Assembly (NCBI GenBank): GCA_010093815.1
Contig: ML996567.1
Strand: one strand, 5' to 3'
Origin: Pseudovirgaria hyperparasitica
Lineage: Eukaryota
Length of the DNA: 64,000 nucleotides
Shown: positions 3,258-64,000 of the stretch, piece after piece
How the letters are laid out: each line of letters starts with the position of its first letter
Position numbering within the stretch: the stretch's first letter is position 1
Program-made: the position numbers and the translations under genes
Notes under the pieces: generated by a model
Told to the model about the DNA's origin: nothing
Database searches by the model: none
The model's input: only the letters and a program-made list of their open reading frames with translations

Positions 3258-3261
3258 ATTA

Positions 3262-3413
3262 TATAAGGAGGTAGGCTCTATATACCAACCAACTATACTA
3301 AAAGGACCGAATCTTAAAGCTACTACTTTAAGGGTGGAGCACACTACTTATATACGACTACTACACACATGTAGAATCAACTGGCAGGCCACGTGCTCCT
3401 CACGTGCCTAACA
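3262..3413 (-). mobile_element. LTR of the TRIM family (152-bp variant)
   Basis: Aligns with 50989-51129 and 51428-51568. Carries an extra 11 bp (CACGTGCTCCT) near its CCTAACA end. Confidence 0.9.
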
Positions 3414-42430: not shown

Positions 42431-42633
42431 TTCACTGTGATATTAGTAAACTCAGTCTACGATGACCGGGCTGTATGACTTACCAAAACATTATTTCGAG
42501 AGATCGCAGAGGAGCCTAGTAGACATGTTAGAATGCTTGTGTCCAAGAAAGCTAAGCATATAGGTGATTCTGAGTATATCTTTCGAGAAGGTTGTGACCG
42601 GGAAGAGTGCGCATAGTGGTTTGCGACCGTTTA

Positions 42634-43093: not shown

Positions 43094-45075
43094 TGTTGTC
43101 GGAAGGCACTTTGAGTAAGAGACACTGCTTCCTAAACGGGACTAGTGTCTAAACGGTTAAATAGCTTCGACTCTGTCTCCTAGAACTTAGTTCTCTATAT
43201 ACTTATAGAATATACTTAATAACCTTAATTACGTCTCCATTTCTCTTATAATAGATTATAAGCCCGGTACTTTACTATAAAAGCCTTAAAACACCTCTTT
43301 ATTAATAAAAACTATTATATTTTAATAAAAAATAAGTCCCTTTTCTAAACTTTAAGTTTTAATATTAACCTTATTAAAGTTTTTACTTTAACTACTCTAT
43401 TAACTCTCTGCCTCTATATTATTCTTACCGTTCTTCTACGTCTTTTACCCTTACTACCTTCCTTATAAATAAGTAATAAGTAGAAAGAGTCGGAATAAGA
43501 AACTATTAGTTCTATATAAAGAAAAGAGAAGAAACTTAAGGAACTTAAGGAACTTATTAATAATAAACATGTCTATTAACTTTAAACTCGATCTATTCTC
43601 TCTATCTAAGCTATCTTTAAGAGGAGAAAATTTCCCTAAGTAGAGATTAGCTTAGATAATCGTATTTAAATATATATAATTATAGATAATAGTCTCTAGT
43701 AGAGTTATTAGACCCTTTAGTACTAGAGTTACGGATTTATATATAGATATAATAGATTAGAATATAAAGGATAATAAGGTAATAATTATATTACTCTTAT
43801 TAATATATTAAGATCTTATTATAGATCTTACTTCCTATAATATAGTAGTAGCTATATAGAGTTATCTATTATTATATTTTAACTATAATATAGATAATTC
43901 TTTAATATATCTATTTAGATTACTTACTAACCTCCGCTATAAAGACGGAGAAGATATCTATAAATATATTAATAACTTCTATTATACCTAGATGCGAATA
44001 GTAAAAAGATATACTACTTTATCTTATATAGTTATAAAAGTAATACGTCTAATCTTTAAGTCTAAAGAGATTAAGGGCTTATTCTTTCTCGTCTTATTAT
44101 CTAATACTATAGACTATATTATTAATAATTTATCTACTCGAGATATATTACATTTTTAAGATATTAAGCTAAAGATACTTAATCTAGCTAAGAAATATAG
44201 TATTAAGCCTAATACTATAGGGTATAAGGCCGGTTATAAGGGTAAGTCTAGTTAGCCTTCTAAGTTAAAGAAGTCTAACTCCGCCTCTATCTCTTCCTTA
44301 GATACTAAGTATACCTAGTATAAGAAATATAGCTTCCCTTCTAAAGGCTATAAGTATTAGAACTACTATAAGCTTAAGGCTTCTAAGAATAATAATAAGT
44401 CTAAAGGTAAGTCTAAGAATAAGAAGTCTTCCTCTAAAAAGGACTTCTTAAGTAAGTAATAAAAAGCTAATAAGGCTAAAGTTATTAAAATTTTAGATTC
44501 TAAATCTAACTCTAATAATAATATCGTTAGTTTCTTTGTAACTATAGCTAATATAAATAGTAAGCGATCTTAAGTAGTAAGTTAGCCTCTTATTTTAGTA
44601 ATATTTTTAGACCTAAGTATTAAAGCTATTAGACTTCTTATAAATTCTAATATTACTACGGATATCTATAATTAGATTTTTAATTCTAGAGTCTTAAGAT
44701 ATATATTAGGCTATATAGATAACTTCTCCTCTCTAGAACCGCGTAACTTAGATAATATATTAATTACGAATTATTAGAAGATTCCGATTAATAGTATTAG
44801 AATAGTTTTCTTAGATTATATTCTCTTAGATAGTTCTATAAAAAAGGTTAAACTTACTAATATTCTCTTTAGTAAGTAACTAAATTCTATACGCCTTTTC
44901 TTCTAGTTATATATTAGAAATTAAGAGTATAGTTTAAGAGTAAAAGGGAATAATCTCTTCTTATATAACTACTACGGATCTAAAGTAATATAGGTAAAAT
45001 TCTATAAGGGCCTTATAAAGATTCGCCTACGCTATATATCTCCTTCGCTTCTATTATATACTATAGTATACTTTA
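43094..45075 (+). mobile_element. Truncated RIP-mutated Ty1/Copia retrotransposon (5' LTR 43094-43253, PBS, gag, protease)
   Basis: LTR starts TGTTG. It is followed by GATTATAAGCCC (RIP form of the Copia PBS GGTTATGAGCCC). Gag ATG ~43568, zinc-knuckle remnant ~44310-44368, W-I-F-D-S-G-A-S-R-H-M protease remnant ~44673-44705. Cut off by the family C LTR. Confidence 0.85.
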
Positions 45076-48000
45076 TATTAGGACTTAGCCTTAGGTAGGA
45101 CCCGACCTACACGTACCTTAGCTAACAGGGTTAGAAGGTAACGTGAAGGGCGGTAAATAGTTACGTACTAGATAGATTAGCGTCCCTTTATATATATACT
45201 CTTAGATTCCTACTAAAAGGGTTCGGTAGTAATTTATTCTATAATAGAATATACCCTATTATTCTATCTAACTATACTACTATCTAATAACTCTATGCTT
45301 ATATTCGAATTACTCCCTATATAGTACTATAGTTAAGATAGTCTAACTAGAACCGAGAAGGTCGACACGATCTACTATAGGGATAAGTAATACTATATTA
45401 AATAATAGGGATCCTCTATAATTAGTATTAATCCTAGCCGTTTCTAACCGAGAAGTAGAAATATTAGACCGAATTACGGAGCTTTTAGATGAAGAAATAG
45501 TAGAGACGCTAAGTAACGTCTAATAATATAAAGCCGGATAATAAGTCGTGGTAGAGCTACGTAAGGTATTATAATAAACTATTACTAAACTTTAGGAATA
45601 TATCGCGAATTAGGCTTAAGAGATTTAAACCCTTAAAGAATAGGTAGAACGCGCGAAACTCCTTATAAAGAGACGAGAACTTAAGGAGTCTCTTAAAGAA
45701 CTACGCCGAACGATAGTAGGTAGACGACTTCCTATACTAATTTAGGCGGAATTAGTTCACCTACTATTAGAGTTATAATAATCTACTATATACCTAGCCG
45801 CTTCGTTACTAATTTACCCTACTTCTTCTCTAGATATACTAAAATCTAAAGACCTAACTATATTTATAGAGAAGAACTAAAAGGAGTAGAAAGACTAGAA
45901 GAGAGACTACGAAAAGTACTTCCTCGATAACCCTCTACTCTTTTCTACTAAAGTATAACGTATTTCGTTCGGAGAACGATATCTAGGCTTATAATCCCGC
46001 GATTAATAGGATAGATAGAAAGAAGTATAGCTACTATCTACGATAACCTAGGAATATTTAGCTATATTTATACTAAACACCCTCGGAACGGATAGAGAAC
46101 GTGAAAGAAAGGTACTATCTAAGTTAAGAAGCGTAGTATAATAACCGAACTAGACACCTACTTAACTACTATAATACCTCTAAAACCTATAGAATAATAT
46201 CCCTATACTATAGAAAAATATTCGTATATTCTAGTTTCGCGAAGTACTACTTCCGTTAATCCGCGAAAGACTAGAAATAGTATTATTAAGTTTTAACTAT
46301 CTATATAAATTAGAGAAGAAAGCTAATAAATACTACCGCATCCTTAAGGAACGTAGCTCTCTAGGTAAAACCGATAAACCCTATACGGGTTAGAAACGAG
46401 GTCAATCGAATACGTTTAATTAAGAGTAACCTTACTATAATTAGTACTAGAAGAGCGTAAATCGGGGTAGAAACGCGTTAAGAGGATACTAAAATAATTA
46501 AGGCGGTACTTCTTAACGTAGAAAAGGATAAGGCATAGGCTTAAATATAATACCTATCGTAAAATAGTAGGATTATAGCGCACTTTATTACTATAAGTAT
46601 AGAGAAATAGAATATATTTCGCCTAACTATAAGAATCCGAAAAAAGAGTAGGCTAGTATACGAGATCTAACCGCGTTCTTAGCTAAATTATATATACTTA
46701 GAAGGAGCCGTAGCGCCTTCCGGTAAGTAAAGACCTAATATTACTAAAAGTATTATTACCTATAGTAAATGGTAATAAAACTATATAGGCCCTCGTGGAT
46801 ACTAGTATAGAAGATAACTATATTTCGTCGATTCTTATAAAGGAGTATAGATTATCGTATAATCTTAGTAAAGTTAGCTAAACTATTATAGTTAATAGAT
46901 ATAAAGTTAGAACTTTAGGTAAAGCTATAATAAATTACGAAGTTTATAACTCGAAGATAATAAAATAGTAGATGTCTAATAAATTTATCGTGGCTAATAT
47001 TAGCTAATAGAATATAATTCTAGGGATGCCTTAGCTTAGACGCCTAAACCCTATTCTTAATTTTTAGAAGGAGATATTAACGTTTTAATAATACTATAGT
47101 AAATTATACTAGTAAGTTATAACTATTAGTAAGGAGGTATAGAACCTTACCGTACGGACCCGATTATTACTAATCTATCTTACGTCCTTATTAATTATTA
47201 ATAAAGATAAGAATAATAGTAATAATCGGGGCGAAGACATACTATCTAATATATATTCGTAGTATACGGATGTGTTTTCGGTAGAAGATACGTTACTTCT
47301 CCCTAATTACGGGCTATATAAGCTAAAGATCGAGCTTAAAGAGGGAGTAGACGTCTCTTATAGTCTACTTTACCTACTTTTAAGACTAGAACTCGAAGTT
47401 CTTTATAAATATATTAAAGAATACCTTAGAAGAGGCTAGATACGTCGTAGTATATTATCGGCTAGTATATCTATTCTCTTCGTAAAGAAGAAAGACGGAA
47501 GTTTATATCTATACGTTAACTATCGGGCACTAAATATAGTAACTAAGAAGAATCGTTATCTATTACCGCTAGTTAGTAAATCTTTAGACTAATTAATAAA
47601 GGTAAAGTACTTTACGAAGCTAGATTTATAAGATATATATTACTAGCTTTAAATTCGTCGTGGAGATAAGTGGAAAACTATATTTCGGACTAGATATAGT
47701 TATTTTAAGTATACTATTATACTATTCGGGCTAATAAATACGCTAGAAGCGTTTTAAGGATATATTAATACTATACTTATAGGATTACTTAATATGATTT
47801 ACGTAGTTTATCTCGATAATATACTAATTTACTCTAATAGTATATAGAATTATAAAGAATACGTGAAATCAGTGCTAAATTATCTAAGGTAGTATAAACT
47901 CTATATAAAATTATCTAAATACGAGTTTTACTAATAAGAAGTTAGGTTTCTCGGCTTTATCATAATATATAGCGGCCTAAAAATAGAGCCGGAGCGTGTA

Positions 48001-49253
48001 AAGACTATCATAGAATAGCTAGAACCTACTACTATACGTTAAATTAGAATATTTATAGGTTTCGTAAACTATTATTATAAATTTATTATAGGCTTCTTAT
48101 AAATTACGGCGCCGCTTAATAAACTTATAGAGAATGGCGGTAAAATCTCTATAGATAGGCGAGTATAGCGTAAAGCTAAGTTAGTCGGGATATAGTTAAC
48201 ACTAGAAGCGCGAGATACGTTCTAATTATTAAAGAATTACTTTATAACTACGCCGATTCTTAGGCATTTTAATTCTAAGAAGTATATTTAGGTTAAAACT
48301 AACACGTTAGAATTCGTAATTACTAGAATTATTAGTTAACCGTATAAAGATATAAAAGATAAGGTATAATAGTACCCGGTCGCCTTCTTTTTCTATAAAA
48401 TAGTAGATATAGAGACGTGTTATAATATACACGACTAGAAACTACTCATAATTATTAAGAGTTTTAAGTAATAGTAATATTATTTAGAAGGCTCCGTACA
48501 TTAGATCGAATTATTATTAGATTACGTATAAGGATTATAGACGTAGAATAGTAGTCTAACAGGTCATAGAAGGATTCGGGAATATATTTAAAAGGGTAGT
48601 CTACTCTCCTAACGAGGTTGATTCCTAAAGAGTAGGAATTAAGTATATGCGGCCTACTTATATAGTGGTCTCGCTTATTCTAGCTAGCTTAATCTAGGTC
48701 CACCTATCACGGACCGTACTAGACCATAGTAGTCTAGTTAAGTCTATTCTAGTATTAGCCCTAATAATATCCTTCTTCTTTTTATGCTTCGCCCTAAAGT
48801 ACTTAGCTATATATAAATCTATAATTCTATAAGCGTTATGTTTATACGTGTATCTAATTAAATCCATATAACGTTATCGATAGTCTTTACATTAGTAAAC
48901 TTAAGCTCTAGTTTACTTTTATTTATATACGCGCTTATCCCTTACTTTATAGCTACTGCCTTAGAGGTAGCTCCGCGGGTCATGTAACCGCTATATTAAC
49001 TAAGCTTATATTTAGTTCTCTTATTCTAAATTTTCTTCTCTAGTATATCTACCTTACTCTTAAGGTAAGTCGTTAATTCATATACTATCTCCTTTAGTTT
49101 AGATCTATTCGGGTCTAGAGTAGTCTATTTTTATTAGAGCTGGTCCTATATAATCCATTCGCGTTATTACGGTTACTAATTTAGCTTTTTTAATCGCCTT
49201 TAAGACTAAACGAGTATTCTACTCTTAGATCTCTAGCTAACGTGTATATATAG

Positions 49254-50558
49254 ATATCTAATACTAGTTCTATTCCTAAGCCTGCCTCCTCCTCTCGTAA
49301 GACTCGCTCTAAAGGGATTACCTCTACCCCGGCTACACCGGCTAAAAAATCCACTTATTATAGTAGTATAAAGGCGCGCTCTAAGTTAGAGAAGAAGGTA
49401 GCTAAGGCTACTACTACTATTACTACTAACGTGGCCACTAGTCGCTCTAATCTAGGTAATCCTAGTACTAGTATTGCGGAAGAGATAGCTATAAAGCCTA
49501 CCTACACCTACTCGCGCCGTCTATCTACTCTACCTCCTTTAGAGAATGAAGAAGATCTTATTATAGACGATAATCGAGAGTTTACGCCTTCGCCGCCTCG
49601 CTCTAAACGCCGTTCCTCTTTTTAGTCTAATATAGACTAACTTAGTCGCTCTAGGTTCTTTTAGGACCTTAATATTTACTCTAAACCCAGCCCTAGTAAT
49701 AATAAGGCCTAGGTCGCCGAAGATACTAAACGTAGTCGCGGTTTACGCTATAGGAAAACAGCGAACTACGGTTTAATATACTTTAAGTATATTAAGGCTT
49801 ACGCTACCGGCTCTAAATATCTCTTCTACTCTAACTCTAGTATTAGCTACTACTCTACTAACCGCGATAGGCCTATACGTCTAATCTTTAAGCTCCCTAC
49901 CTACTACCGCCGCTATACCGTCCTTAGTAAAGTTTATCTTTAGGTAAGTCTATTAGACTATTTTAGTCTAGGGTAATCTAAAGTTATCCATGCTAATACG
50001 TTTTTAGGTTTCTATTTATATATAAGATATATATAATAATCTTCGCGTCCGCGAGACTCTCGGCGGTTCTAGCGGTTACCTAGCTTCTATACGTAGGGAG
50101 TTTAGGGAGCGCTATAAGCTCTTCCTAGAGGTTATTAAAGTGTAAGTTTAGAAACCGTTAATTATTATTAACCTTAGCTTATAATTTTTAGTCGCCGCGA
50201 GATTCCTAGCGCTTAGGCTACCTATTCTAGGGAGTCGGTTTTAGCTACTAAGGCCGTAGAAGAGATTCGTACTATTCCTTCCCGTCCGCCTCGTACTACT
50301 AACGGGTCTTATAAGAGATCTACTAGTTCTCCTTCTAAGTTACCTTATAAGAGGGTATATATTCTATTCTAGATTATTCTAGACCGTGTTAGCTAACTTT
50401 AGGTCTAGTCGCTCCGCTCTAGCACTTAGTCGTCGTCTTACTAGGCTCTAACCGAGCGCGTGGTTACTCTAGAGGATAAGGTCTCTAACCTCCGTCGCTC
50501 TATTACTCGGTTAGTTTATCCGCTATACTCTAAGAGTAATAATAAGATAGAGGAGTAG
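49254..50558 (+). pseudogene. Antisense 4-exon accessory gene of family A (exons 49254-49943, 50008-50141, 50192-50354, 50403-50558), about 380 aa, Zn-cluster-like plus coiled coil, RIP-mutated
   Basis: Frame is kept across three GT..AG introns with branch-like motifs. Internal stops are only TAA/TAG (RIP products). The start is ATA (presumed RIP'd ATG) directly after an acceptor. Confidence 0.75.
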
Positions 50559-50809
50559 CTCTATGGCTCTGTTTGCTAGGGTTTCTATATAGTATATATT
50601 GGCTCTATCTACCTAGTTTCTATCCGTTTTAGTCCTTTTTAGACCGTTTAGATACCTATCTACTAGTTTTCTAGTAATTTAATTCTTAACTTAATGATAT
50701 TATGTGCGTTCTTATTTATTCTATGACTATTGAATTTTAGGTTCTAATTTCCTTTAAGTTACTTAAGTATAGGCATTATATATAAATTAGTTTATCTCTC
50801 TAAATTATA

Positions 50810-50859
50810 TTAGAGTACCCGAACTAGTGGCCTAGTAGTTATTAGTTCGGGTACTCTAA
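50810..50859. repeat. Inverted repeat / hairpin with a 17-bp perfect stem
   Basis: TTAGAGTACCCGAACTA ... TAGTTCGGGTACTCTAA. Confidence 0.85.
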
Positions 50860-50988
50860 CCTTTTATATTATATATCACGAGTTCAATTCCGTAGTGGGG
50901 TACCTTTTTAGTTTCTTAGTCCCATGTTCTTCTCGTGTGTAATGGTCTATATTAGTCCATTCTAGACTTCTCTATGTTATTCTATTAT

Positions 50989-51568
50989 TGTAAGGAGGCG
51001 GGCTCCACGTACCAACCAACTATACCAAAAGGGCCGAATCTTAAAGCTACTGCTTCAAGGGTAGAGCACACTACTTATATACGACTGCTGCACACATGTA
51101 GAATCAACTAGCAGGCCACGTGCCTAACAATATCTCCCCTTTTCGAAGGCGCGTGTCCTCACGCGTCGTGGGCATGCTACCTTACGAAAGATAAACTAAA
51201 CTAGCCGTAACGGGCCTAGTATAAACGATATGCACACACAACTAATACTCGCAATGCCGCCTCTAGCACTAGACACGCTAACTTACCGTAGTAACGTTAC
51301 TACCATGTTATCCGTTACGTGTATAAAGTATATGTGACGTGGTAAGCTAAACGGAATCGTGCGAAATTTAATAACGGTTAACTAGACCGAGAGTTGAACC
51401 CGTGACCCCGTAGTAGCTTTAAGATTATGTAAGGAGGCGGGCTCTACGTACTAACTAACTATACTAAAAGGACCGAATCTTAAAGCTACTGCTTTAAGGG
51501 TGGAGTATACTACTTATATACAACTACTACACACATGTAGAATCAACTGGCAGGCCACGTGTCTAACA
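50989..51568 (-). mobile_element. TRIM (non-autonomous miniature LTR retrotransposon), 580 bp
   Basis: 141-bp TG..CA LTRs at 50989-51129 and 51428-51568, 298-bp non-coding interior. ATTAT TSD at 50984-88 and 51569-73. PPT AAAAGGGGAG on the minus strand. The empty site is visible in the paralog at ~61071-61090. Confidence 0.93.
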
Positions 51569-54500
51569 ATTATGATATATCGCGTCGCGTGCCTATAACG
51601 GTTATTTACGTTTTCTTCGCGTTTAGTAACCGTATATCGCTTAAATTATAGGGCTACCTTATAGAGTTTTCCTAGTATGCGTTTAGGATTTATGATTCGA
51701 CACTTCGTTTTCTATAGTATTCTTCTTCTTTTTATAACGGCCCTAACGGTACTAGGTTTACGGTAGTAACGTGTTATCCTATAACCTCTATTTATATATA
51801 GCTATCGCGGTACTTAAGATATGTACCATAGGTTCCTAGGTATCCTTATTCTCGGTATAGTTCTTCTAATAGATTTAATACTTTTAGATACCGTTCTCGT
51901 CGAGCCTATATTCGATAATATAGTCTACTTCGTACACGTCTAGTCTATCTTAGGGTATAATAGAGTGTAATTACACGTTTATATATTTATACACGTTAGG
52001 TCGAAACCTTTTAAGTAATAAGATATAGAATACGTTATAGACTTTCATGTCGTTTCCTAGGTCGAGCTTATAGACTCTTATACTAATATAACGTTTAATT
52101 TAGAAGGGACTAGTCATTTTATAATCGAGCTTTTTATTCACTCGCGACGTTTATATATTACGGACGTTAAGGAGAACTTCGTCTCCCTCCTCGTACGCTT
52201 AATCTTTAACTAATCTATTATAGTACTTTATATATAACTTATTCGCTTACTAGATTATTACGCGATAGTTACGTGTGGTTTTAAAGATTTTAATTGCCAG
52301 TTCCTACGCGTGGACGTTAACATCTATTATTCGGTCGAACTAGACCGTGTAAGGTTCGAAACCTATCCTTAGACTACGTTCTAGGTTCGCCTAGAAGGGC
52401 GTGACACCTATTATACTATAACGACTATTATTATACGCGAATTCTACTATACTTAGTAGAGAGGCCTAGTTATCTTATTTAAAATTATAGAATGCACGAA
52501 GGTAGGCCTTAAGCGTTTAGTTCTATTACTCTATCTAACTATCTATTTATAGATGGAATACTATTAACATGTTTCTATTTATACCGGCTATTTCATAGAA
52601 TAACGTCTAGAATTTAGATATAAATATACTCCCTCGGTCCGTAACGATCCTTTTTAGTATACTATAGACCTTAATAATCTTATTCTAGAATACTTATACT
52701 AGTTCTTTTAATGTAATCGTCTTCTATATAGGGACGTACCTAGATATCTTTATAAGTCTATCCACGATAATAAGAATTAAATTATAACTTATTCTAAGCA
52801 TCTCGCTTGGAGGTAAGTTAACTATAAAATCTATAGTAATATCTTCCTATATAAAGAGGGGGACTAGTAGAGGCTGTAAGTTCCTATATAGCTTATACCT
52901 AGGTGCCTTTATTCTTTAATAAATCGGATAAGTAGCTATCCATTCTTCGACGTACTTAGGTATATCTTTCTAAAAATAGTACTAACGAATTAAGCTTAGG
53001 GTGCGTATATACCCGAAATATCCTACTAGGTTAGCGTTATGGTATCGGCTAACTATAGTAAATTATGCGTTGCCCGTCGGTATATAGTACTTTCTATTAT
53101 AGTAGAGTAAGCCGTCCATGAAGGTCTACTTATAGTCTACTTCGGTCTATAATAACCTATCTTACTATATTTTACGTAACTTTAAAACTATTAGGTCTAT
53201 CTTTTATAGATCTATAATTAACTAGGCGAGGTCTACTTAATATATACGCCGGGTACTATCGCCCTCCCTAATAGCGCTGATAAATGGCTCGCTAGGGACT
53301 TCGGTACCGCGTCTTTAGTTACCGGCTTTAGTCTTATAAATTTAATTACCGGCATTAGCGTTAGTATCTCGCTAATCGTCGGATAACTTATTATCTAACC
53401 TCGTCCTTAAGAGTTAGGCCTATAGCTACTATAATTCTAGGCGCCTTCTTTATAGTTAGGTCTTCTTAATATTCTATTAGCTAGGTTTATACTTCTAGGT
53501 CGATGGTAGATTATAAAGTAGAAATTTATAAGCTACTTAGCCTATCGAACCTATCGATGATTTAAAACCGTCGTGCTTATAAACCCCTTTAAGTTATAGT
53601 AATTAGTTAGTAACTTAATATTATATATAGTACCTTTAAGATAATATCGCTACTACTTAAACGACTCTACTATTACTAGTAGCTCTTGGTTATAAATAGT
53701 ATATCTAGTCTTAACGTCGGCCATCTTACGCGAGAAGAACGTAACTAGATACTATTAGACCTTTTTAGACTCTATTAGTCTAGGCTAGGAGAGTATACCC
53801 GAGATTATAAATTCTAATATATTAGTTTCGACGCGAATAGATTTAGTTAGGTCGAAGTATACTAGTAATAGGGCGGTTATAAATGCTTCTTTAATCTTCT
53901 CGAAGGATGTTCTTTCGACCTTAGTTAATTTAATAGATTATAATTCGATATTACGCTGTTTCTGTCCACCATAGACCGTAATAGACGAGTTAGTAGTAGT
54001 AGTGCGTGTATTAAGTGGTGCGGCTAAACGGGAGAAGTATTTAATAAATTTTTAGTAGTAGTTGGCGAAGCTAATAAAGACACGTATGTCTCGAACGGAT
54101 TTTGGTTTAGGCTAGTCTATAATAGTAGTAACTCTATCTCTCTCTATGGTTATACCTTAATTAGTAATAACGAAGCTAAGAAAGTTAATATAGTCCTAAT
54201 AGAACTCGCATTTAGATAGCTTAATATATAGCTTATACTTTTCTAGCCTATCTAGGACTATACGTACGTGCTAGATATACTTCTCCTCGTTATCTAAGAA
54301 GATAAGAATGTTATCTAGGTACACGATATATATCGTGTCGAGTAGGCCTACTAGCGCGTTATTAATATATACTTAGAAGGTGTCTAGCGCGTTAGTTAGT
54401 CTAAAAGGGACTACGGTATACTTAAAGTATCTATAACGGGTCCTAAAAGCCGTTTTCTATTCGTCGCCTTCCTTAATGCGAAGGCGATAGTAGGCGTTAC

Positions 54501-57500
54501 GTAGATCGAGCTTAGTAAAGATCTTTACATGTTCTAGTCTATTAATAGACTTAGAGATAAGAGGTAGTAGGTAACGATTCTTTCGTGTAATATTATTTAG
54601 GCTATAGTAGTCGATATATAGATAGAGGCTCCTATTCTTCTTCTTTATAAAGAGGATTAGAGCTCCGGCTAGAGATATACTAGGCCTAATCTATCCTCGC
54701 GTAAGGTTCTTTTCGATATATTCTTAAAGGGCTTATAACTTAGGTTCTAAAAGAGGGTAGATGGGTCCATGTAGAGGTTACTAGCCATCTTCGAGATTAA
54801 TAGTAAGGTTAGTAGGTTAGTATTAAGGTAGTTCGGAGGAATCGATTACTAACGCGATATATTAGTATATTTTATACTAATATAGTAGGTTTTCGTCTAC
54901 TTTAATACTAAGCTTACTATTTTATATAAGTAAGAGTATATAGATAGTAGAGATTACCTTCTCGTAATCCTTCTAGAATTATTCGTCGTTAATAAGCTAT
55001 ACTAGTTCCTATTAAGGTAGGTTTATACGCTAGCTAGCTGTCTTCTTAAGGAAGTCTAGTTTTAGGTTATATTTCTTAAGCTATAGTATACCTAGGATTA
55101 TATCGAAGGGACTATCTACCACGATAAAGGTTAAGTAGTAGAGTTTCTATTTCCCTCCGCTATTCTAGATGCTATATTTAATAGTATAGGTGCCGTATAA
55201 CTTAATAGGACCGTTAATGCTATGGAACATAGTACTTATTAAAGCTTAGATGTCGGCGTTAAGTTCTTATGCTTATTAGATTAACATGACGTTAGTAGCC
55301 GATCTACTATTAAGTATTATAGTCTAATATTATCTACGAGGGACCTCGATAGGTCTAGCCTATAGTTCGATATACTATTTAGCGGATTACCCCTCTATTA
55401 TAGTCGCGCCTATAAGTCGCGAGGGTTTCTTATAGACTATTAGTTTTTTATATTCTATACTAGGTAGTTAGGCGCGATGTATCCTAGCTACTAGCACTTA
55501 TAGTATATAACTAGTTAGTTAGTTATATTAGCACTTAGTAGCTTCCCCGAACGGTACTTAGGTACTATATAGTCTATTCTATTATAGGTATAGTAAGTAA
55601 CTTTAGGTCGTTTATACGAGTCGGTCCTCGTATCTTAACGTGTCGATTAGTAGGGAGATCCACGATATAATCCGCGTGGTTTTGAATTTAAGGCGTAGTA
55701 GTAGCCTCGTAACGTCCCGCGAGATCTATTACTAAATTAGTTTTAGTTAGATAATTTTACGTTAGATTAGATCATTAGAGATAGTCGTGCACTAGCGCGG
55801 CGTTAATTATTTATTATACGCTAGTATCGCTCCGCGAGGTTTATAAGAGCTTAGAGATCTATAGGGATTATTATTATAAGGTCGAGATAGTCCTTTATAT
55901 TTAGGGCAAGGGACCGTTTAAAGTCGTTATACTATCGAATTATATAATCTTCTTCGGCTTCTCTCTAGAGGGGCCGAAGGTATTTAAGGAGTTATAATAG
56001 TAACTAATTATCTCGTTATCGAGTCTTAAAGATATAGCCCTAGGCCTAGTCGCGTTATTTAGCCCTATCGCTAAAACATTAGAGGAGAAATTCGGTGAAC
56101 GTGTCCTAGTTATAGGCATCCTTAGGATATTCGATTCGGTATACTATCTAACGTTCTAAAGGCGTTAGGTCGAGGTAGTTCTAGGCGAATCTAATTTTAT
56201 CGCTGTCGTTCGTGAATAGATAGAAGAATCGGCTATATTAGTAAGCCTATATATAGAAACTCTTTCTACTTTTACCATCGAAGTAAGGTAGTTTCTTAGG
56301 TCGGGGTAATTAGGATAGTAGTAGACTAGGATAGATCGTTTTAGTTAGTATAGGTCTATATAAATGTAGATTAGTCGTTACTAGAACTAAAGCGCATAAT
56401 ATAGCTTTAAGTCTTATAGTACGTCCTCGAGCTTCGTCGAGTTCATATAGTTATTACTTAAGTTAAACCTATTATTACCTCTCTTCGTGTAGTCTAGTAT
56501 ATACGTTATTATAAGGTATGGTTAACGTTAGGTAATTCTAACGGATTAACTCGTTAACGTTAATAAGGTCTAGCCTTATATTAAGGTTAGGTCTAGTATA
56601 GTTTAAACTAGACCGAGATAGAGTATAATAGACTCTATCCTTATATTCTATAATATCTTCTATAGTTACACGGAATATCGTATAAGTTATTAGTACGATA
56701 GCCTATAAGGTATAGTTATTAGTAGGGGTAGTTATAGGTAGACTATTCTCCTCGTTTAGGTTAGGAGAAGGTCTACTATAAGAGGCGGTGCCACGAGTGT
56801 TATAATGAGTGGTTAGAGCTATTTCTATAAACTACCGTCGTGCTATATAAAGAGGAATTAAAATATAAGGATTATAGACGTAGGATAGTAGTCTAATAGG
56901 TCATAGGAGGATTCGGGAATATATTTAAAAGGGTAGTCTACTCTCCTAACGAGGTTGATTTCTAAAGAGTAGGAATTAAGTATGTACGGCCTACTTATAT
57001 AGTGGTCTCGCTTATTCTAGCTAGCTTAACCTGGGTCCACCTATCACGGACCGTACTAGACCATAGTAGTCCAGTTGAGTCCATCCTAGTGTCAGCCCTA
57101 ACATTACGTAAATCTATATTACTTTATATTAACTAAGGTCCTTAATCGCCGATAAGTACGTTAGGCTAAGTAGATATTAATATTTAACTTTAAAATCTTA
57201 TATAAAGCTAGAAGAGAGAATAAAGCTAATCCTCTATCGCGGCGTAAAGATTATAAGAAATCGTTATAGAATAACGTAGATAGTTAGTATAAGTTAGACT
57301 ATACTATACTTTAGATACTATAAGACTAGTTATCTAATAGAATACTAGAAGCTAGAACACTTTCGGCGATTCTCCGCGGGAATTAGAGCGGGTATTAAGT
57401 AATCTAAATAAACGTCTAAGAAACTAAGAAAACCCTCGAAGACTTAATTAAATCTACCTAGAATTCCGATATATTAGTAAAGAAAGTCATAAGCATAAAA

Positions 57501-59346
57501 GGAAGCGCTATAGATCCGCCATAGTTATTAAGGTAGGAACGACGATCAGACGCGATCTACTTCTAAGGCCGACTCTATATACCGGAAGACGGCTTACGAA
57601 TCGATGTTTTAAGGGAATAGTATAATTACGCGTTAGTAGGGCACTTCGGCATTATAAGGACGGTCGATTTAATCCGAAGGACGTACGACTAGCCGGGTCT
57701 TTATAAATATATAAAAGACTACGTAAAAATGTATAACGTTTGCCAGTATACGAAAGTGTATAGATACTTACTATATGGCGAATTAAGGCTATTACCTATA
57801 CTAAAGGAGGCATAGAAGGAATTATCTATGGATTTTATTATAGATCTACCCCTAAGTAAGTATTCTAGGTATATTTATAATAGTTTACTTATAGTTCTAG
57901 ATAGATTTACGAAGATGTTATACTATATCTCTATAAGAAAGATAATCCAAGCACCGGATCTTATAGATATACTACTCCGTGATGTAGTTCGGCTCTATAG
58001 TATACCGAATGGTATAGTTTCGGATAGAGGTCCGTAGATAACGTCTAAATTTTAGAAGGATTTCTACTATACGCTAGGAATCAAGCGGAAACTTAGTACT
58101 ATATTCTACCTATAAATAGATAGGTAGACGGAGCGGTAGAATTAGATAGTCGAGGCGTATTTACGTGTATATTATAACTATAAGTAGAATAACTAGGTAA
58201 AGTTAGTCTGTATCGCGGAATTCGCGTATAATAATAGCCGATATACGTTAACCCACGTAAGTCCGTTCAAAGTAAACTTCGGTCGGAACCATAATGCGTA
58301 GTTCTTAGGGACTTAGTTCAAAGTAGAACGATCTAACGTTAAAGTAATAGAAATTACTATAGAACTATTCTAAACGTAAAGAAGCGTTATAAAGTTACTA
58401 TAAGATACTACGAATTATAGTAAATCGCACTATAATAAGGGTAGAAAACCCATGATCTTTAATGTTAGGGACAAAGTTTTACTAAATAGCAAGAATATTC
58501 GTAGTATTAGGCCAAAGAAGAAGCTTAACTATATAATGATAGGTCTATATAAGATTACTCGTGTAATTAATAACTAGGTATACGAGTTATAACTCCCTCC
58601 TACGTTAAAGATATATAATATATTCCATATTACGCTTCTCGAGCCATTTCATGCCTTATTATTACCGGATCGTTCTGAATAGATACTACATGAAGTAGTT
58701 ACGTAAGAAGGTATAGATATCTACGAAGTTAAGTAGATACTTAGCTAGTAACGCGCCGAAGATGGCACGTAGCTATATAAAATTCATTAGAAAGGATATA
58801 ATTCTAACGAAGATACTTAGGAACCTGTAATAAACATTAGTAAAGTAGCGATATTAGTATATAAGTAGCGATTGGTAAAGGAAGCCGTAGAATCACGGAG
58901 AATTATGCTAAAGTACGGCGATTCGACGTTTTTTAGTATAGTTCGGCGCCGAGAACGGCCGCCTAAAAGGAAGAAGGTAAAAGAGACATAGATCTTTAAA
59001 ACATTCTAAGGAATTAAGGAACTTCCTTAGAAAGTTTAAACTTAGAACTTTAAAAAATTTAACTAAAAAAGAGACTTAGAAAAATGATTTACTAAGAGAA
59101 ATGGACATCGAAAATCGGTGCCGATTAGTATAGATTAGTATAGATTACTAAAGAGATTAAAGAAGTTATTATTAAAGAAAGATAAAATTAAGAAAGCTAA
59201 AAGAAAATATAAAGATCTATATAGATCTATATAAACTCGTACTAATCTATCTAGAAGAAGTAAGATCGCTTTAAAATTAAAACCGAAAAACTAAAACGCT
59301 AGATAAAAGAGATATATTAGTACCGATCGGTATAGATCTAAACCGA

Positions 59347-60328
59347 TTAAGTCGGAGTAGGAGTAGAAGTACTAATTACCGCGATAGTTACATCTAATTC
59401 CTTCTGCTGGTTCTTATTTAGTATAGTATAGAGCTTTATAATATAAGTCTCTAGCCTTTCGTTCCGACGCTATAAATTCTATATAGCGTGCCTTATAACT
59501 ATGAACTCCTCTATAGAAACCTATAGAGCGGCGGGACCCGGGACGGAGAGAGACGGACCAGCGCGGGCACGCTAAGAATTATATAAATTAGCGAAAAGAT
59601 TTAACGATTAGTATAGAACCATATACCTTTAGTATAGAAACTTCTAGATTAGAGCTATCTTCCCTAAATTTACGGCTCTTTAGCACGCGCGAGGAAGAAA
59701 CCTTAGCCTTTTTACTAGAACCTTTTCTAGGAATTCTAATATCGCTAGTATATAGAAAGAAGTCCGAAGTAGTAGAGATTTTAGTACTATTATAGAGATT
59801 AATATATATTAGTAAGAATCTATAACGATTTAAGAAAAACGATATTACCTAGTAATCGCGGTAATAATAGCTATAGTAGATTCTAATAAATCCTTACGGA
59901 TCTTATTAGAATCGTACTCCTAGGCGTAACTCTTACCTTAGGTATATAGCTCGTAGAAAGCCTTCTCTAAGGCGTTACGATCGGTAGTACTACGCTCCTT
60001 ATCGGTAGGGGTTACTAGAGGCCTAGTAGTAATCTATACCGATATAAGTAAATCTACGTAAAGTTCTTCGAACTTAATTAAATACCTATAAGTAATAACG
60101 CTTCTTAGTCATGTAAGTACCGTATATTATAGATTTAGTACTACCGTGAGTAATATACAACGGAAAGCGACAACCATAATAATATATAGCTAGATTATTA
60201 GAGCCCGGCCTAGGTCGGGGTAGATCGATAGCTTTCGACATGTCGGTGACGTATATAAGACAGGGATTATTCGAAGGCGCCTGTTTCCGCGCCGATTACT
60301 TTAGAGCGTCGAGATTTTAGGAAACCAT
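59347..60328 (-). pseudogene. Antisense 4-exon accessory gene of family C (exons 60328-60086, 60033-59849, 59786-59627, 59571-59347), about 270 aa, Zn-cluster-like plus coiled coil, RIP-mutated
   Basis: Intact ATG at 60328. Three 52-62-nt GT..AG introns keep the frame. Two Cys TGT codons survive (60262, 60172). Internal stops are only TAA/TAG. Confidence 0.78.
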
Positions 60329-61040
60329 GTTAAGATTATTATTAATTTATATAGATTATTACGAATTATATTATTACTAGCTAAGGACGGCACGAAAATT
60401 AGTAAATTGCGTAAATCGCACTAAATTATAGTAAATCTATATAAATCTATATCTATAAGGATCGGGTGATATATCTAATAATCTAAAAAACTCTATAAAG
60501 AGTTAAGAAGTTTTTTAAAGAAAGGAATATTTCTAAGAAAAGATTTTAATATAGGTAGCACCCGGGCTTACCTAATTATATTACGTGATACGCTAGGCCT
60601 AATTAGGTAATCTCACCTATGTAAGAAGTTAAGATGGATAAAATTTGGTTTATTAGGAAAACGCTTATATAAATCTTAGATCGGCGAATATTAGTAAGTA
60701 TCTAAGACGAAGCGTAGAGAACGACTAAGGTCTTACGAGACTTAGGATAGGGATATAGAGATAGATAATAATCTAGGTCGCTAAGGGTAGCTTCCTAGAG
60801 GGAAGGGATAATTATTAGGACTTAGCCTTAGGTAGGACCCGACCTACACGTACCTTAGCTAATAGGGTTAGGAGATAATATAAAGGGCGGTAAATAGTTA
60901 CGTACTAGATAGATCGGCGTCCCTTTATATATATACTCTCGGATTCCTACTAAAAGGGTTCGGTAGTAATTCGTTCTATGATAGAATACACCCTATTGTT
61001 CTATCTAACTACACTACTATCCAATAACCCTATTCTTATA

Positions 61041-64000
61041 ATATTAGTCTATTCTAGACTCTTCTATATTATTCTATTATGGTATATCGCGTCGCGTTCC
61101 TAAAATGGTTATTTACGCTTTCTTTGCGTCTAGTAACCGTATAACGCTTAAATTATAGGGCTACTATATAGAGTTTTCCTAGTGCGCGTCTAGATTTCCT
61201 AGTTTAGCACTTTATTCTCTACGGTATCCTTCTTCTTTTTACGACGACCGCGATATTACTATACTTATATTAATAATACGCTATTCTATATCTTTTACTT
61301 ATACGTAGTTATTATAGAACTTAAGATATATACCGCTAGTTCCTAGGTGTCCTTGTCCTTAGTATAGTCCTTCTAATAGATTCTATATTTCTAAATACCG
61401 TCTTTATTAATCCTATGTTTAATAATATAGTCTACTTCGAACACGTCTAGTCTATCTTAGGGTATAATAGAGTGTAACTATACGTTCATGCGGCCATACA
61501 CGTTAGATCGAAATCTTTCGAGTAGTAAGACGTGGAACATATTATAGATTCTTATATTACTTTCTAAGTCGAGCTCGTAGACTCTTATACTAATATAACG
61601 TTTGATTCGGAAGGGACTAGCCATTTTATAATCGAGCTTCTTATTTACTCGCGATGTTCGTATATTACGGACGTTAAGAAGGACCTCGTCGCCCTCCTTA
61701 TACGTCTAATCCTTAGCTAACCTATTATAGTACTTCGTATACGAGTTATTTACTTATTAGATTATAGCGCGATAGTTACGTACGGTTTCGAAGATTTTAA
61801 TCGCTAATTTCTAAGCGTGGACGTTCACGTCTATTATTCGATTAAATTAGACCGTCTAAGGCTTAAAACCTATCCTTAGACTACGTCCGAGATTCGCCTA
61901 GAAAGGTATAATATCTATTATACTATAACGACTATTATTATATACGAACTCTACTATACTTAGTAGAGAGGCCTAGTCGTCCTACTCGAAATTATAGAAT
62001 ACATGTAGATAGGCCTCGAGCGTCTAGTTCTATCGCTCTATCTAGCTATCCATCTAAGGATGAAATACTATGGATATATTTCTATTTATACTTACTATTT
62101 CGTAGAATAACGTCTAGAATTTAGACGTGAAGGTACTTCCTCGGTCTATAACGATCCTTTTTAGTATACTATAGACCTTAATAATCTCGTTCTAGAACAC
62201 CTACGCTAGTTCTTTGGATATAATCGTCTTCTACACCGAGATATACCTAGATATCTTTATAAGTCTATCTACGATAGTAAGAATAGAATTATAACTTATT
62301 CTAAGTATCTCGCTTAGAGGTAAGTTAACTATAAAGTCTATAGTAACGTCTTCCTATATAAAGAGGGGGGCTAAAAGAGGCTATAAATTCCTATATGGCT
62401 TATGCCTAGGGGCCTTCATTCTTTAATAAATCGGATAAGTAGCTATCTATTCTTTAACGTACTTAGGTATATCTTCCTAAAAATAGTACTAACGAATTAA
62501 GCTTAGGGTATGTACATACCTAAAGTGTCCTACTAGGTTAGCGTTATAGTATCGGCTAACTATATTAAATCGCGTGTTACCCGTTAGTATATAGTACTTT
62601 CTATTATAGTAAAGTAAGCCGTCTACGAAGGTCTACTTATAGTCTACTTTAGTCCGTAATAACCTATCTTACTATATTTTATATAACTTTAAAACTATCG
62701 GGTCTATCTTCTATAGATCCATGATTAACTAGACGAGGTTAATTAGATATTCATGCTAGATATTATCGCCCTTCCCGACAGCGCTAATAAACGGTCTACT
62801 AGGGACTTTAGTACCGCGTCTTTAGTTACCGGCTTTAGTCTTAGAGATTTAATTACCGGTATCGACGTTAGTATCTCGCTAATCGCCTAATAACTTAAAA
62901 TCTAACCTCGTCCTTAAGAGTTGGGCCTATAGCTACTCTAGGACCCTATAGCTACTATAATTCTAGGCGCCTTCTTTATAGTTAGGTCTTCTTAATATTC
63001 TATTAGCTAGATTTATACTTCTAGATTAATAGTAGATTATAAAGTAAAAGTTTATAAGCTACTTAGCCTATTAGACCTATTAACGGTTTAAAACTATCGT
63101 GCTTATAAACCCCTTTAAGTTATAGTAATTAGTTAGTAACTCAACGTTATATATGGTACCTTTAAGATAATATCGCTACTATTTAAACGACTCTACTATT
63201 ACTAGTAGCTCTTGGTTATAGATAGTATATCTAGTCTTAATATCGACTATTTTACGTGAGAAGAACGTAACTAGATACTATTAGACCTTTTTAGACTTAG
63301 TTAGTCTAGGCTAGGAGAGAATGTCTAAGATTATAAATTCTAACGCGTCGGTTTCGACGTGGATAGGTTTAGTTAGGTCGAAGTATACTAGCAATAGGGC
63401 AGTTATAAATGCCTCTTTAATTTTCTTAAAGGAGGCCCTTTCGCCTTCTAATAATTCTATAGGCTATAATTTAATATTATACTATTTCTATCTACCGCGG
63501 ACCGTAATAGACGAATCTATAGTAGTAGTACGCGCGTTAAGCGGTGCTACTAGCCAGGAGAAATACTTAATAAATTTTCGGTAGTAATTAGCGAATCTAA
63601 TAAAGACACGTATATCTTAAACCGATTTTAGTTTAGGCTAGTCCACGATAGTAGCGACCCTATTCCTTTCTATAGTTATACCTTAATTAGTAATAACGAA
63701 GCTAAGGAAGTTAATATAGTCCTAGTGGAACTTACATTTAGATAGCTTAATATATAGCTTATATTTTTCTAGCCTATCTAGGACTACGCGTACGTGCTAG
63801 ATATGTTCTTCTTTATTATTAGAGAAGATAAGAATGTTATCGAGGTATACGATGCACGTTATATTAAGTAGACCTACTAGCGCGTTATTAATATACGCTT
63901 AGAAGGTTCCTAGCGCGTTAGTTAGTCTAAAAGGGACTACTATATACTCGAAGTATCCATAACGGGTCCTAAACGCCGTTTTCTACTTATCGCCCTTCTT
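61041..64000 (-). mobile_element. Third family A-like Gypsy copy (chromodomain, integrase, RNase H, RT), runs off the window
   Basis: Colinear with about 50949-50988 plus 51574-54470, without the TRIM. Shows some non-RIP substitutions and an 18-bp insertion near 62935, so probably a sister subfamily. Confidence 0.9.

Follow-up and report, generated by a model that had tools for sequence, protein, structure and literature searches.

Probable remains of a spliced antisense accessory gene between pol and the 3′ LTR in two RIP-mutated chromoviral Gypsy elements of Pseudovirgaria hyperparasitica

Two nested chromoviral Ty3/Gypsy retrotransposons of Pseudovirgaria hyperparasitica, here called A and C, each contain a degenerate spliced gene which reads in antisense direction to gag-pol. 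Stop counts, a codon test robust to RIP, and the geometry of the splice sites indicate that the antisense strands at these places were once protein-coding; the case is strong in element A and moderate in element C. All visible copies are dead; their Gln and Trp codons are all stops and the start of gene A is mutated. We favour, with a confidence slightly above even, the explanation that in either element RIP has left only the dead remains of an antisense accessory gene from the class of antisense additional ORFs between pol and 3′ LTR. Described members are brtn of the Boty elements of Botrytis as well as the plant genes of Grande (gene23), RIRE2 and Retand (PMC7264820, PMC8365987). As this class has already been described, the finding is interesting, not extraordinary. 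The study follows up a first-pass annotation of 64,000 nucleotides of contig ML996567.1 (GCA_010093815.1); this whole stretch is referred to as the window.

The two retrotransposons and their setting

From 42.5 to 64 kb the window is AT-rich, with a GC content of 0.30-0.39, and beyond position 42465 only one ORF of at least 80 aa is present. This region harbors the nested elements A and C, both heavily RIP-mutated. Element A is located on the minus strand (48527-57106) and was delimited by its LTR pair. Its LTRs (3′ LTR 48527-48769, 5′ LTR 56864-57106) have a length of 243 nt each and are 93% alike. Pol extends from the RT domain to the chromodomain (51791-54648), and Pfam matches on the minus strand include RVT_1 (E 1.5e-20), RT_RNaseH, Integrase_H2C2, and SH3_Tf2-1. 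Element C, on the plus strand (45076-61040), was delimited by its LTR pair (228 nt, 92% alike) and is split by element A at 48526/57107. Its 5′ part (45076-48526) comprises the 5′ LTR (45076-45303) followed by gag, RT, and RNase H; its 3′ part (57107-61040) comprises integrase, SH3, chromodomain, the spacer with gene C, polypurine tract, and the 3′ LTR (60813-61040). The plus-strand Pfam matches are RVT_1 (E 3.4e-17), RT_RNaseH_2, Integrase_H2C2, rve, and SH3_Tf2-1. Both chromodomains are sub-threshold matches (A: ~51791-51934, minus strand, E 0.0039, 17.5 bits; C: ~58722-58847, plus strand, E 0.00046, 20.5 bits) with respect to the Pfam Chromo cut-off of 25.1 bits. The polypurine tracts were called by eye, in A on the minus strand at 48770-48783, where a plus-strand pyrimidine run adjoins the 3′ LTR, and in C on the plus strand at ~60797-60808.

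The first-pass annotation had described an interval of ~2 kb between chromodomain and polypurine tract with a four-exon antisense gene in both elements. This is borne out by spacers of 1.8-2.2 kb and by coding chains of 1143 nt (A) and 813 nt (C). The elements are related, being 40% identical from integrase to chromodomain; no nucleotide similarity was found between their pol-to-LTR spacers. Element A has in addition received a miniature LTR element of ~577 bp (50989-51570), located outside gene A. The insertion possesses terminal repeats of ~140 nt (direct repeats of 143 nt, 90% alike) and a 5-bp target duplication, and its empty site is found in another family-A copy. The joint 50983 to 51569 is present in DNA runs.

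Within the window the gene regions of A and C occur in one copy each, and the other family-A pieces (1-3266 and 61041-64000) are devoid of the gene A region. Contigs from the DNA runs cover all 30 bins of 48770-60812, and the spacers are as deep as pol in these runs, depth not being equal to copy number. In run X1, 850 of the 872 listed kinds of difference are transitions. The data suggest that the gene-bearing spacers are part of the repeated unit.

Gene models and former coding sequence

Both genes lie in the spacer that separates the end of pol, with its chromodomain, from the polypurine tract; they read towards pol and have three short spliceosomal introns in the coding part. Introns in this orientation survive retrotransposition because they are reversed in the element's own RNA and thus not spliceable.

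Gene A, on the plus strand, is a frame chain of four exons with lengths of 690, 134, 163, and 156 nt (total 1143 nt, a multiple of three), separated by GT..AG introns of 64, 50, and 48 nt. Exon 1 (49254-49943, 230 codons) begins with ATA, as expected for an ATG after RIP. It contains 5 stops in 230 codons, compared to 42 and 49 in the worst frames, and its purine/pyrimidine coding score ranks second in the whole AT-rich region. Ser, Thr, Pro, and Lys abound in the first 160 residues and Tyr in the last 70. Intron 1 (49944-50007, phase 0; GTAAGT ... CTAAT ... TTTTAG) is followed by exon 2 (50008-50141), with one stop in 44 codons and the model register top in the purine/pyrimidine test, and by intron 2 (50142-50191, phase 2; GTAAGT ... 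TTTTAG). Exon 3 (50192-50354) is basic and Ser/Thr-rich (K+R 12/55, S+T 15/55). For intron 3 (50355-50402, phase 0; donor GTATAT) an alternative acceptor exists at 50408, giving 54 nt, a better branch-site distance and one in-frame stop fewer. Exon 4 (50403-50558) encodes four heptads (50448-50513) with Leu at all d positions and V, V, I, L at a. Leucine heptads turn up often when this DNA is translated in six frames (14 four-Leu runs), and among these runs the one in exon 4 is the only stop-free one with charged residues in between.

Gene C, on the minus strand, is likewise a four-exon frame chain, of 243, 185, 160, and 225 nt (total 813 nt, a multiple of three), with GT..AG introns of 52, 62, and 55 nt. 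Exon 1 (60086-60328, 81 codons) starts with ATG, and Tyr, Cys, and His are frequent among its last 36 residues. Intron 1 (60034-60085, phase 0) has a weak donor, GTATTT, and no clear branch site; a stop-minimising search prefers other introns in this gene, including a different pair at intron 1. Exon 2 (59849-60033) contains 2 stops in 61 codons, with the model register top in the purine/pyrimidine test. Intron 2 (59787-59848, phase 2; GTAATA ... ACTAAT ... TAG) also has a poor donor, as does intron 1, and is the sole GT..AG of the right length class on the minus strand there. Exon 3 (59627-59786), without a stop in 53 codons, is again basic and Ser/Thr-rich (K+R 13/54, S+T 17/54), followed by intron 3 (59572-59626, phase 0; GTATAT ... 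CTAAT ... TAG). The heptad repeat of exon 4 (59347-59571) carries I, L, L, L at d and F, I, N, I, L at a; it is one of six matches to an a/d zipper pattern in the region.

Upstream of both starts, 5′UTR introns of 189 and 191 nt had been proposed. The corresponding GT..AG stretches do exist, in A on the plus strand (49065-49253; GTAAGT ... CTAAC ... TAG) and in C on the minus strand (60381-60571; GTAAGC ... ACTAAT ... TAG), but each is only one of several acceptable pairs: one of three in A, and one of five in C, which all use the only good donor ahead of the ATG. In run X3 this donor of C is crossed by an unspliced contig, which counts neither way.

The best frame chain with up to three introns was searched for with free choice and compared to 1000 dinucleotide shuffles. 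The best chain of gene A has 8 stops and was equalled in 0/1000 shuffles. Gene C has 6 stops and was equalled in 16/1000 shuffles (p 0.016) and in 2 of 126 natural windows that exclude the genes. Stops per 50 codons amount to 1.44 in A and 1.66 in C, in comparison to 2.3-3.6 in the true pol frames of the same copies and an all-frame mean of 4.86. RIP consists of transitions only and therefore leaves the purine/pyrimidine pattern intact. A codon test on this pattern, for which host genes of the window served as training set, ranked the true pol frame top in four of four controls. The spliced models reach 0.066 (A) and 0.058 (C) bits per codon, versus a 99th percentile of 0.049 in 414 windows, and in 7 of 8 exons the model register or its exact complement is clearly top. 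The test is blind to strand, as the complement scores 28.1 versus 25.3 for the model in A.

Alternatively, there may have been no antisense protein gene, the frames mirroring a sense-strand ORF located after pol or resulting from a chance choice of GT..AG pairs in TAG-rich RIP DNA. The strand-blind test is compatible with this, and a pol frame and its exact complement are about equally open in RIP DNA (32 vs 30 and 28 vs 38 stops). Acceptable short intron candidates arise about once per kb per strand, and gene C reaches only p 0.016. However, the models pass through three register changes, and on the sense strand a GT..AG of the needed length class is absent at two of three junctions of A (introns 1 and 2) and one of three of C (intron 3). 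The best sense chains contain 15 (A) and 11 (C) stops against 8 and 6, and the shuffles never matched gene A. Exon by exon, the model frame has fewer stops than its complement, with equality in one case. Canonical GTAAGT donors and CTAAC/CTAAT branch sites are found exactly at the register changes; GTAAGT, with a frequency of 0.56 per kb per strand, is the donor of two of the three coding-part introns of A and of its candidate upstream intron. We consider the absence of an antisense gene quite unlikely.

Relationship of the two genes and nature of their product

The annotation had pointed out that both genes share intron phases 0/2/0, exon 3 of 163 versus 160 nt, the intron 3 donor GTATAT, and an exon 1 ending in Y-x2-Y-x6-Y-L-TAG|GT, all of which agrees with the gene models. 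The only two occurrences of Y..Y......YL plus stop in 42,598 six-frame residues are those exactly at the two exon-1 ends. With regard to the annotation's proposal of one regulator family, the genes share their architecture and this motif, but the overall protein alignment is not significant. Local BLOSUM62 comparisons gave z -0.17 (265/500 shuffles as good) and z 1.30 (59/500), z 0.53 after saturating RIP in both proteins, and z -1.0 to 0.4 for exons 1-3; exon 4 alone reached z 2.5 (13/500 as good). A whole-length purine/pyrimidine alignment was not significant either (z 0.79, 69/300 as good). A collinear purine/pyrimidine codon alignment gave z 2.31 (11/300 as good) and places introns 2 and 3 of the two genes within 1-3 codons of each other. 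Each gene was read from a single copy only, and homology, which would rest on shared architecture and one motif, is unproven.

Two unrelated acquisitions in the same permissive spot, with coincidence or convergence in architecture, would be in line with the missing protein similarity, given that the gag regions of the same elements do align (z 9.8 in the protein and 4.45 in the purine/pyrimidine comparison). Exons 1, 2, and 4 are of very unequal length in A and C (690/134/156 vs 243/185/225 nt), and the spot between pol and 3′ LTR is described as hosting additional ORFs in many unrelated families (PMC7264820). The identical phases, an exon 3 within 3 nt, and the exclusive exon-1 motif argue against separate origins, as do the zippers in the same exon with a register matching around N-L...R-L and the weak collinear alignment. 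Separate origins thus appear unlikely to us. Under the preferred explanation of an antisense accessory gene, the genes of A and C would go back to a common ancestral gene of these related chromoviruses, their divergence now being past ordinary sequence recognition. Searches for relatives were negative: phmmer with exon 1 of gene A returned no match among 1.84 billion representatives, word-index searches found none, tblastn against 66 metagenome Gypsy loci gave a best E of 1.3, and no Pfam domain was detected in either gene.

As to the product, the translated models point to a basic, Cys/His-rich, leucine-zipper protein. The basic, Ser/Lys/Arg-rich exon 3 and the heptads of exon 4 noted in the annotation agree with composition and heptad registers. 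Tyr, Cys, and His together are enriched at the exon-1 ends (A 13/70, p 0.024; C 10/36, p 0.0026) over a pol baseline of 10.2%. The pol frames of these copies contain 0.24% Cys, 1.2% His, and 8.8% Tyr; RIP is thus saturated, and in single copies a TAY codon may go back to Cys, His or Tyr. The annotation had taken the motif for a Zn(II)2Cys6 cluster of the Gal4 type, its cysteines changed to tyrosines. TGY to TAY is indeed a standard RIP change, Y-x2-Y-x6-Y has the spacing of a half-cluster and occurs twice in A, both exon-1 ends are enriched as stated, and like these fungal factors the models have a coiled coil further downstream, as is usual for Gal4-type proteins. However, CAY to TAY, from His, is equally expected, and the Tyr-rich segments match neither PF00172 nor any other Pfam family at E up to 10, nor do the exons. 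The halves in A lie 19 residues apart, in contrast to 5-12 in the family formula, and the first is without basic residues. Gene C has a single half with Y-x2-C-x4-Y-x2-H upstream. The full six-Cys spacing is not found. The zipper follows the motif at ~115-135 residues, a distance about ten times longer than in Gal4-type proteins and no short linker. A Zn(II)2Cys6 regulator is therefore very improbable, and this part of the annotation is not upheld.

The antisense RNA itself could also have been the working product, pairing with the element RNA and feeding or tuning small-RNA silencing, with a secondary or short-lived frame. Antisense transcripts from LTR elements have been discussed in this role (PMC7264820), and Botrytis Gypsy elements are described as major small-RNA sources (PMC8365987). 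An RNA-only function would maintain neither a codon periodicity above that of pol nor frame-preserving phases and an amphipathic heptad repeat, and we regard it as highly improbable.

For the accessory protein we favour, composition suggests three putative parts. The end of exon 1 would contribute a patch rich in Cys and His with a potential for zinc binding; a basic region rich in Ser, Lys, and Arg would carry clusters resembling nuclear import signals; and a leucine zipper of four heptads would serve pairing. From these parts we take the product for a possible dimeric regulator, located in the nucleus and binding nucleic acids, which may have controlled expression or integration of its own element. 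The promoter of the gene would be located in or beside the 3′ LTR.

Comparison with known antisense genes

The closest parallel by description is brtn, an antisense gene of Boty-like Gypsy elements in Botrytis cinerea and Sclerotinia reportedly described by Zhao et al. 2011 (Virology 417:248). The annotation had named this gene correctly (PMC7264820, PMC8365987); brtn is also described in PMC4227169 and PMC5987419. Compared by these descriptions only, brtn likewise is an extra antisense gene between pol and 3′ LTR of an ascomycete chromodomain Gypsy element and has no known domain. Boty copies include intact ones, in contrast to the RIP-dead copies here, and unlike in the brtn case the gene is present in two diverged families of a single genome. 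Plant counterparts are found in maize Grande (gene23), rice RIRE2, Silene Retand, and Phaseolus PvRetro13 (PMC7264820). According to that source, they share place and orientation in Ty3/Gypsy elements, lack database similarity and are suspected of a regulatory role; they are present family-wide, the gene23 product is nuclear, and the antisense gene has a promoter of its own upstream. The plant systems differ in belonging to non-chromoviral lineages without a sequence link, and the exon-intron structure found here is not in their definition as given there (PMC7264820).

The models also resemble a retroviral gene, HBZ of HTLV-1, in layout, not in descent. Transcribed from the 3′ LTR in antisense direction and spliced, HBZ encodes a bZIP factor. 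It has in common with the models an antisense position near the 3′ end of a retroelement, a spliced mRNA, and a leucine zipper; HTLV-1 is a vertebrate retrovirus, and there is no homology. In bZIP proteins the basic region must abut the zipper, whereas no basic region abuts the zippers of A and C, which are preceded by Ser-rich or Gly/Pro-rich residues. HBZ nevertheless provides a model for how such an antisense gene could regulate its element, and an antisense promoter in the 3′ LTR of HTLV is mentioned in PMC7264820.

Two nested chromoviruses in RIP-mutated DNA

The DNA is divided into a GC-rich block at 4-42 kb and AT-rich blocks with a GC content of 0.30-0.39 on both sides of it. The genes of the GC-rich block are ordinary fungal ones (Sec7 GEF, RecQ helicase with HRDC, ThrE, RCC1, PLP-dependent decarboxylase, COG3 and RTA1). 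This block is intact (4000-42500) and has sharp borders to the two AT-rich, RIP-mutated blocks, an isochore-like arrangement. The AT-rich blocks are nearly devoid of open frames, whatever start rule is used, and one of the 13 ORFs of at least 80 amino acids overlapping 40-64 kb lies beyond 42465. Searches of 42-64 kb with ARAGORN and Rfam gave no matches. A RIP-mutated fragment at 43140-45075 looks like Copia-type LTR and gag sequence (family assigned by eye); it holds the block's top windows in the purine/pyrimidine coding test described below, and the 5' LTR of element C truncates it.

Element A (48527-57106, minus strand) is bounded by LTRs of 243 nt, which are direct repeats and 93% alike. 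It is inserted between positions 48526 and 57107 of element C (45076-61040, plus strand), whose LTRs are direct repeats of 228 nt and 92% alike. With stops translated as X, the minus strand of element A yielded Pfam matches to RVT_1, RNase H, Integrase_H2C2 and SH3_Tf2-1; the plus strand of element C matched these domains and, in addition, rve. In both elements Chromo follows SH3 (E 0.0039 in A and 0.00046 in C), with 17.5 and 20.5 bits against a Pfam cut-off of 25.1 bits, as is expected for RIP-damaged copies. Both thus show the layout of chromoviruses, with reverse transcriptase, RNase H and integrase in Gypsy order followed by a chromodomain. From integrase to chromodomain they are 40% identical, and therefore represent related yet well separated chromovirus families.

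The spacer between chromodomain and polypurine tract measures 2.2 kb in A (secondary insertion excluded) and 1.8 kb in C. The first-pass annotation, made from the sequence alone, had described the interiors of the two elements as dissimilar, and the spacers are indeed without nucleotide similarity. Further family-A copies at 61041-64000 and 1-3266 show 76-92% and 90.6% likeness to the full copy, and both lack the spacer; the window holds no second readable copy of either gene region. The 3' LTR of element C adjoins one of these copies precisely where the spacer would start, so that either element C or a rearrangement removed the antisense-gene region of that copy.

The secondary insertion in A is a miniature LTR element of ~577 bp (about 50989-51570) with a 5-bp target duplication. 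It has TG...CA ends, two terminal repeats of ~140 nt that are 90% alike and an interior of 297 nt, and its GC content of 0.45 marks it as far less RIP-mutated than its host element. A solo repeat of the same kind (about 3262-3400) adjoins a further LTR of family A at the beginning of the window. Between the end of the antisense gene and pol, the spacer of A also contains a 51-nt palindrome (50810-50859) which is 82% complementary and has no ARAGORN or Rfam match.

Contigs from four sequencing runs were placed on 48770-60812 at 80% likeness. Two DNA runs of one sample yielded 37,417 and 13,075 matching contigs, which cover every bin, the spacers as deep as pol, this depth being no measure of copy number. 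Among the kinds of difference listed for run X1, 850 of 872 are transitions. These data fit high-copy, RIP-diversified families with the spacer as an integral part. The DNA runs also contain the empty site of the miniature LTR element and joints of its repeat elsewhere in A and C; two runs of unknown kind cover this element at a depth of 52-146.

Evidence for spliced coding sequence opposite to gag-pol

In each spacer a chain of four exon-like frames runs antisense to gag-pol. Gene A (49254-50558) falls in the interval from the LTR edge (48769) to the chromodomain (51791), gene C (59347-60328) in that from the chromodomain end (58847) to the LTR (60813). The exons measure 690, 134, 163 and 156 nt in A (sum 1143) and 243, 185, 160 and 225 nt in C (sum 813), both sums being multiples of three. 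The introns of 64, 50 and 48 nt (A) and 52, 62 and 55 nt (C) have GT..AG borders throughout and phases 0/2/0 in both genes. Intron 3 starts with GTATAT in A and C, possibly the RIP product of the common donor GTATGT. Exon 1 of each gene ends with Y-x2-Y-x6-Y-L-TAG immediately 5' of the donor. On re-check, all coordinates and counts of the first-pass annotation for the two models were reproduced, and the four-exon antisense architecture, the intron phases, the exon 3 lengths and the GTATAT donor which it had reported were confirmed. In intron 3 of A, an acceptor six bases further on (50408) suits the branch site better and takes out one stop. Introns of 189 nt (A) and 191 nt (C) upstream of the genes are candidates.

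The models contain 11 stops in 381 codons (A) and 9 in 271 (C), all of them TAG or TAA. Per 50 codons this corresponds to 1.44 (A) and 1.66 (C), compared with 2.3-3.6 for pol read in its true frames in these copies and an all-frame mean of 4.86. Since the introns could have been chosen freely in the first-pass annotation, low stop counts might come from the choice itself, and a control was run in which a dynamic programme freely selects any three GT..AG introns of 45-75 nt and minimises stops. For A the free search reached 8 stops, compared with 18.9 +/- 2.8 in shuffles, none of 1000 being as low. For C it reached 6 stops, compared with 11.2 +/- 2.2 in shuffles, with 16 of 1000 as low; among natural windows outside the genes A and C, only 2 of 126 matched this value. 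The introns of the free search coincide with the three places of the model in A, not in C.

A second line of evidence is immune to transitions. RIP causes transitions only, and the purine/pyrimidine string of a copy is therefore that of its ancestor. A purine/pyrimidine codon model was trained on the window's unmutated host genes, and in four of four RIP-saturated control segments it ranked the true pol frame first. The spliced models score 0.066 (A) and 0.058 (C) bits per codon, which exceeds pol as well as the 99th percentile (0.049) in a set of 414 similarly sized windows. Exon 1 of A includes the second and fifth best 100-codon windows in the entire AT-rich block.

The coding strand has to be judged from splicing, because neither stop counts nor the purine/pyrimidine test can separate a frame from its complement. 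The latter test is blind to the exact complement (25.3 versus 28.1 for A), and so are stop counts, with 32 versus 30 and 28 versus 38 for pol frames and their complements. The register shifts three times, and a gene on the sense strand would lack a GT..AG intron of the required length class at three of the six junctions (introns 1 and 2 of A and intron 3 of C). The best sense-strand chains have 15 (A) and 11 (C) stops, compared with 8 and 6 on the antisense strand. There, the register changes fall at GTAAGT donors, a hexamer found 0.56 times per kb and strand, with CTAAC or CTAAT branch sites.

The antisense exon chains are thus a genuine observation that clearly exceeds chance. The spacer of A firmly qualifies as a former spliced coding sequence, and that of C probably once held one as well. 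Every copy seen is inactivated. Expression of RIP-silenced copies is not to be expected; no RNA run is listed as containing the stretch, and no joints at the predicted introns occur in the four runs, of which the two of unknown kind (X3 and X4) give 8 and 4 contigs.

Kinship and predicted product of the two genes

The first-pass annotation had proposed that both genes belong to one family. Overall protein comparison does not bear this out: local alignment of A with C is at chance (z -0.17 and 1.30 in two tests) and gives z 0.53 after RIP has been saturated in both, compared with z 9.8 for the gag regions of the same two elements. On the other side stand the common phases, an exon 3 length differing by one codon and the shared end of exon 1. 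In 42,598 six-frame residues the exon-1-end motif occurs four times if no stop is required and twice with the stop, both of the latter being the exon-1 ends of A and C. These ends are enriched in Tyr, Cys and His taken together (13 of 70 residues in A, p 0.024; 10 of 36 in C, p 0.0026) relative to a baseline of 10.2% from RIP-adjusted pol. A transition-proof codon alignment is collinear along nearly all of C (z 2.31, 11 of 300 as good) and places introns 2 and 3 of both genes within 1-3 codons of each other, with negative controls at z -0.6 and -0.1.

The basic exon 3 and heptad-like exon 4 noticed in the first-pass annotation were found in both genes by composition and heptad registers. Exon 3 is basic and Ser/Thr-rich, and exon 4 encodes a four-heptad zipper whose core can be aligned (z 2.5, 13 of 500 shuffles equal or better). 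The d positions are occupied by L, L, L, L in A and by I, L, L, L in C, which has in addition an Asn at one a position. Heptad leucines are common in this DNA, with 14 such runs in the region, and for this reason argue only weakly for kinship by themselves. Taking these points together, we consider common descent of genes A and C reasonably likely.

As to the product, similarity searches gave no assignment. Pfam detected no family on the exons of either gene (E up to 0.01), and phmmer found no match for A exon 1 among 1.84 billion representatives. A exons 3-4, C exon 1 and C exon 4 served as queries for word-index searches restricted to longer proteins, which returned nothing at E up to 1, and a stop-free stretch of 76 residues had no usable match in the ESM Atlas. 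A metagenome scan by integrase-chromodomain alignment delivered 66 Gypsy loci that are all distantly related, with 22-42% identity over the best aligned segment, and the antisense proteins matched none of them (best E 1.3); the ORFs inspected in 15 of them were nothing like the antisense genes. Viral contigs likewise contained no match to these proteins.

The first-pass annotation had read the Tyr-rich segments at the exon-1 ends as a RIP-mutated Zn(II)2Cys6 cluster, for which the formula is C-x2-C-x6-C-x5-12-C-x2-C-x6-8-C. This reading was not upheld: in a search with E up to 10, neither segment matched PF00172 or any other Pfam family, at a sensitivity lowered by Tyr in place of Cys, and the spacing is outside the formula in A and C. 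Even if any Tyr, Cys or His is allowed as a ligand, A offers two halves separated by 19 residues and C a single half. In the pol of these copies, Cys makes up 0.24%, His 1.2% and Tyr 8.8% of the residues. RIP is saturated and both TGY and CAY become TAY; a TAY codon may thus conceal Cys, His or Tyr, and among the 40 differences listed of 956 in the contigs none falls at the candidate ligand codons. A bZIP protein was rejected as well. No basic region abuts the zipper in either gene, the preceding residues being Ser-rich in A and Gly/Pro/Ala-rich in C, and Arg or Lys codons are not convertible to Ser by RIP transitions. From the Cys/His-rich patch, the basic stretch with import-signal-like clusters and the zipper, we hypothesize that the product may have been a nuclear, dimeric, nucleic-acid-binding regulator.

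Antisense genes in Gypsy elements

According to the review PMC7264820, antisense additional ORFs located between pol and the 3' LTR are relatively frequent among the Gypsy elements of plants, as in Grande, RIRE2, Retand and PvRetro13, and Boty of Botrytis and Sclerotinia is the non-plant example. The review describes their products as being without known function or clear database similarity, reports one of them to be nuclear and mentions transcription from the ORF's own promoter (PMC7264820). The antisense gene brtn of Boty is assigned to the BcGypsy1 subfamily in PMC8365987, which also mentions additional ORFs predicted for other LTR families of Botrytis. A Monilinia transcript with 63% identity to the BRTN protein is recorded in PMC5987419. 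The first-pass annotation had named an antisense brtn gene in Boty, which agrees with PMC7264820 and PMC8365987. In our literature search, the brtn line was the only report of an antisense gene in LTR elements of fungi, which is no proof of absence elsewhere.

Genes A and C both lie in the segment that separates pol from the 3' LTR, on the strand opposite to gag-pol. They are two dead additions to the known aORF-3R class and are probably related to each other. A wider scenario, which we regard as rather unlikely, would be an ascomycete chromovirus clade, possibly including Boty with brtn, that carried one ancestral antisense multi-intron gene predating the split of A and C. Such a gene would encode a zinc-binding, basic nuclear protein with a leucine zipper, the retrotransposon equivalent of antisense regulators in complex retroviruses, with the element's own LTR or host silencing as its target.

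For RIP-saturated DNA such as that at 42700-64000, the purine/pyrimidine codon test can recover coding registers, and the exon structure together with the exon-1-end motif provides handles for locating live copies in fungi that lack RIP. If one such gene is common to two diverged families of fungal chromoviruses and its intron positions are kept, it is old and was under selection, and what it encodes would be an accessory protein of retrotransposons and not an annotation oddity.
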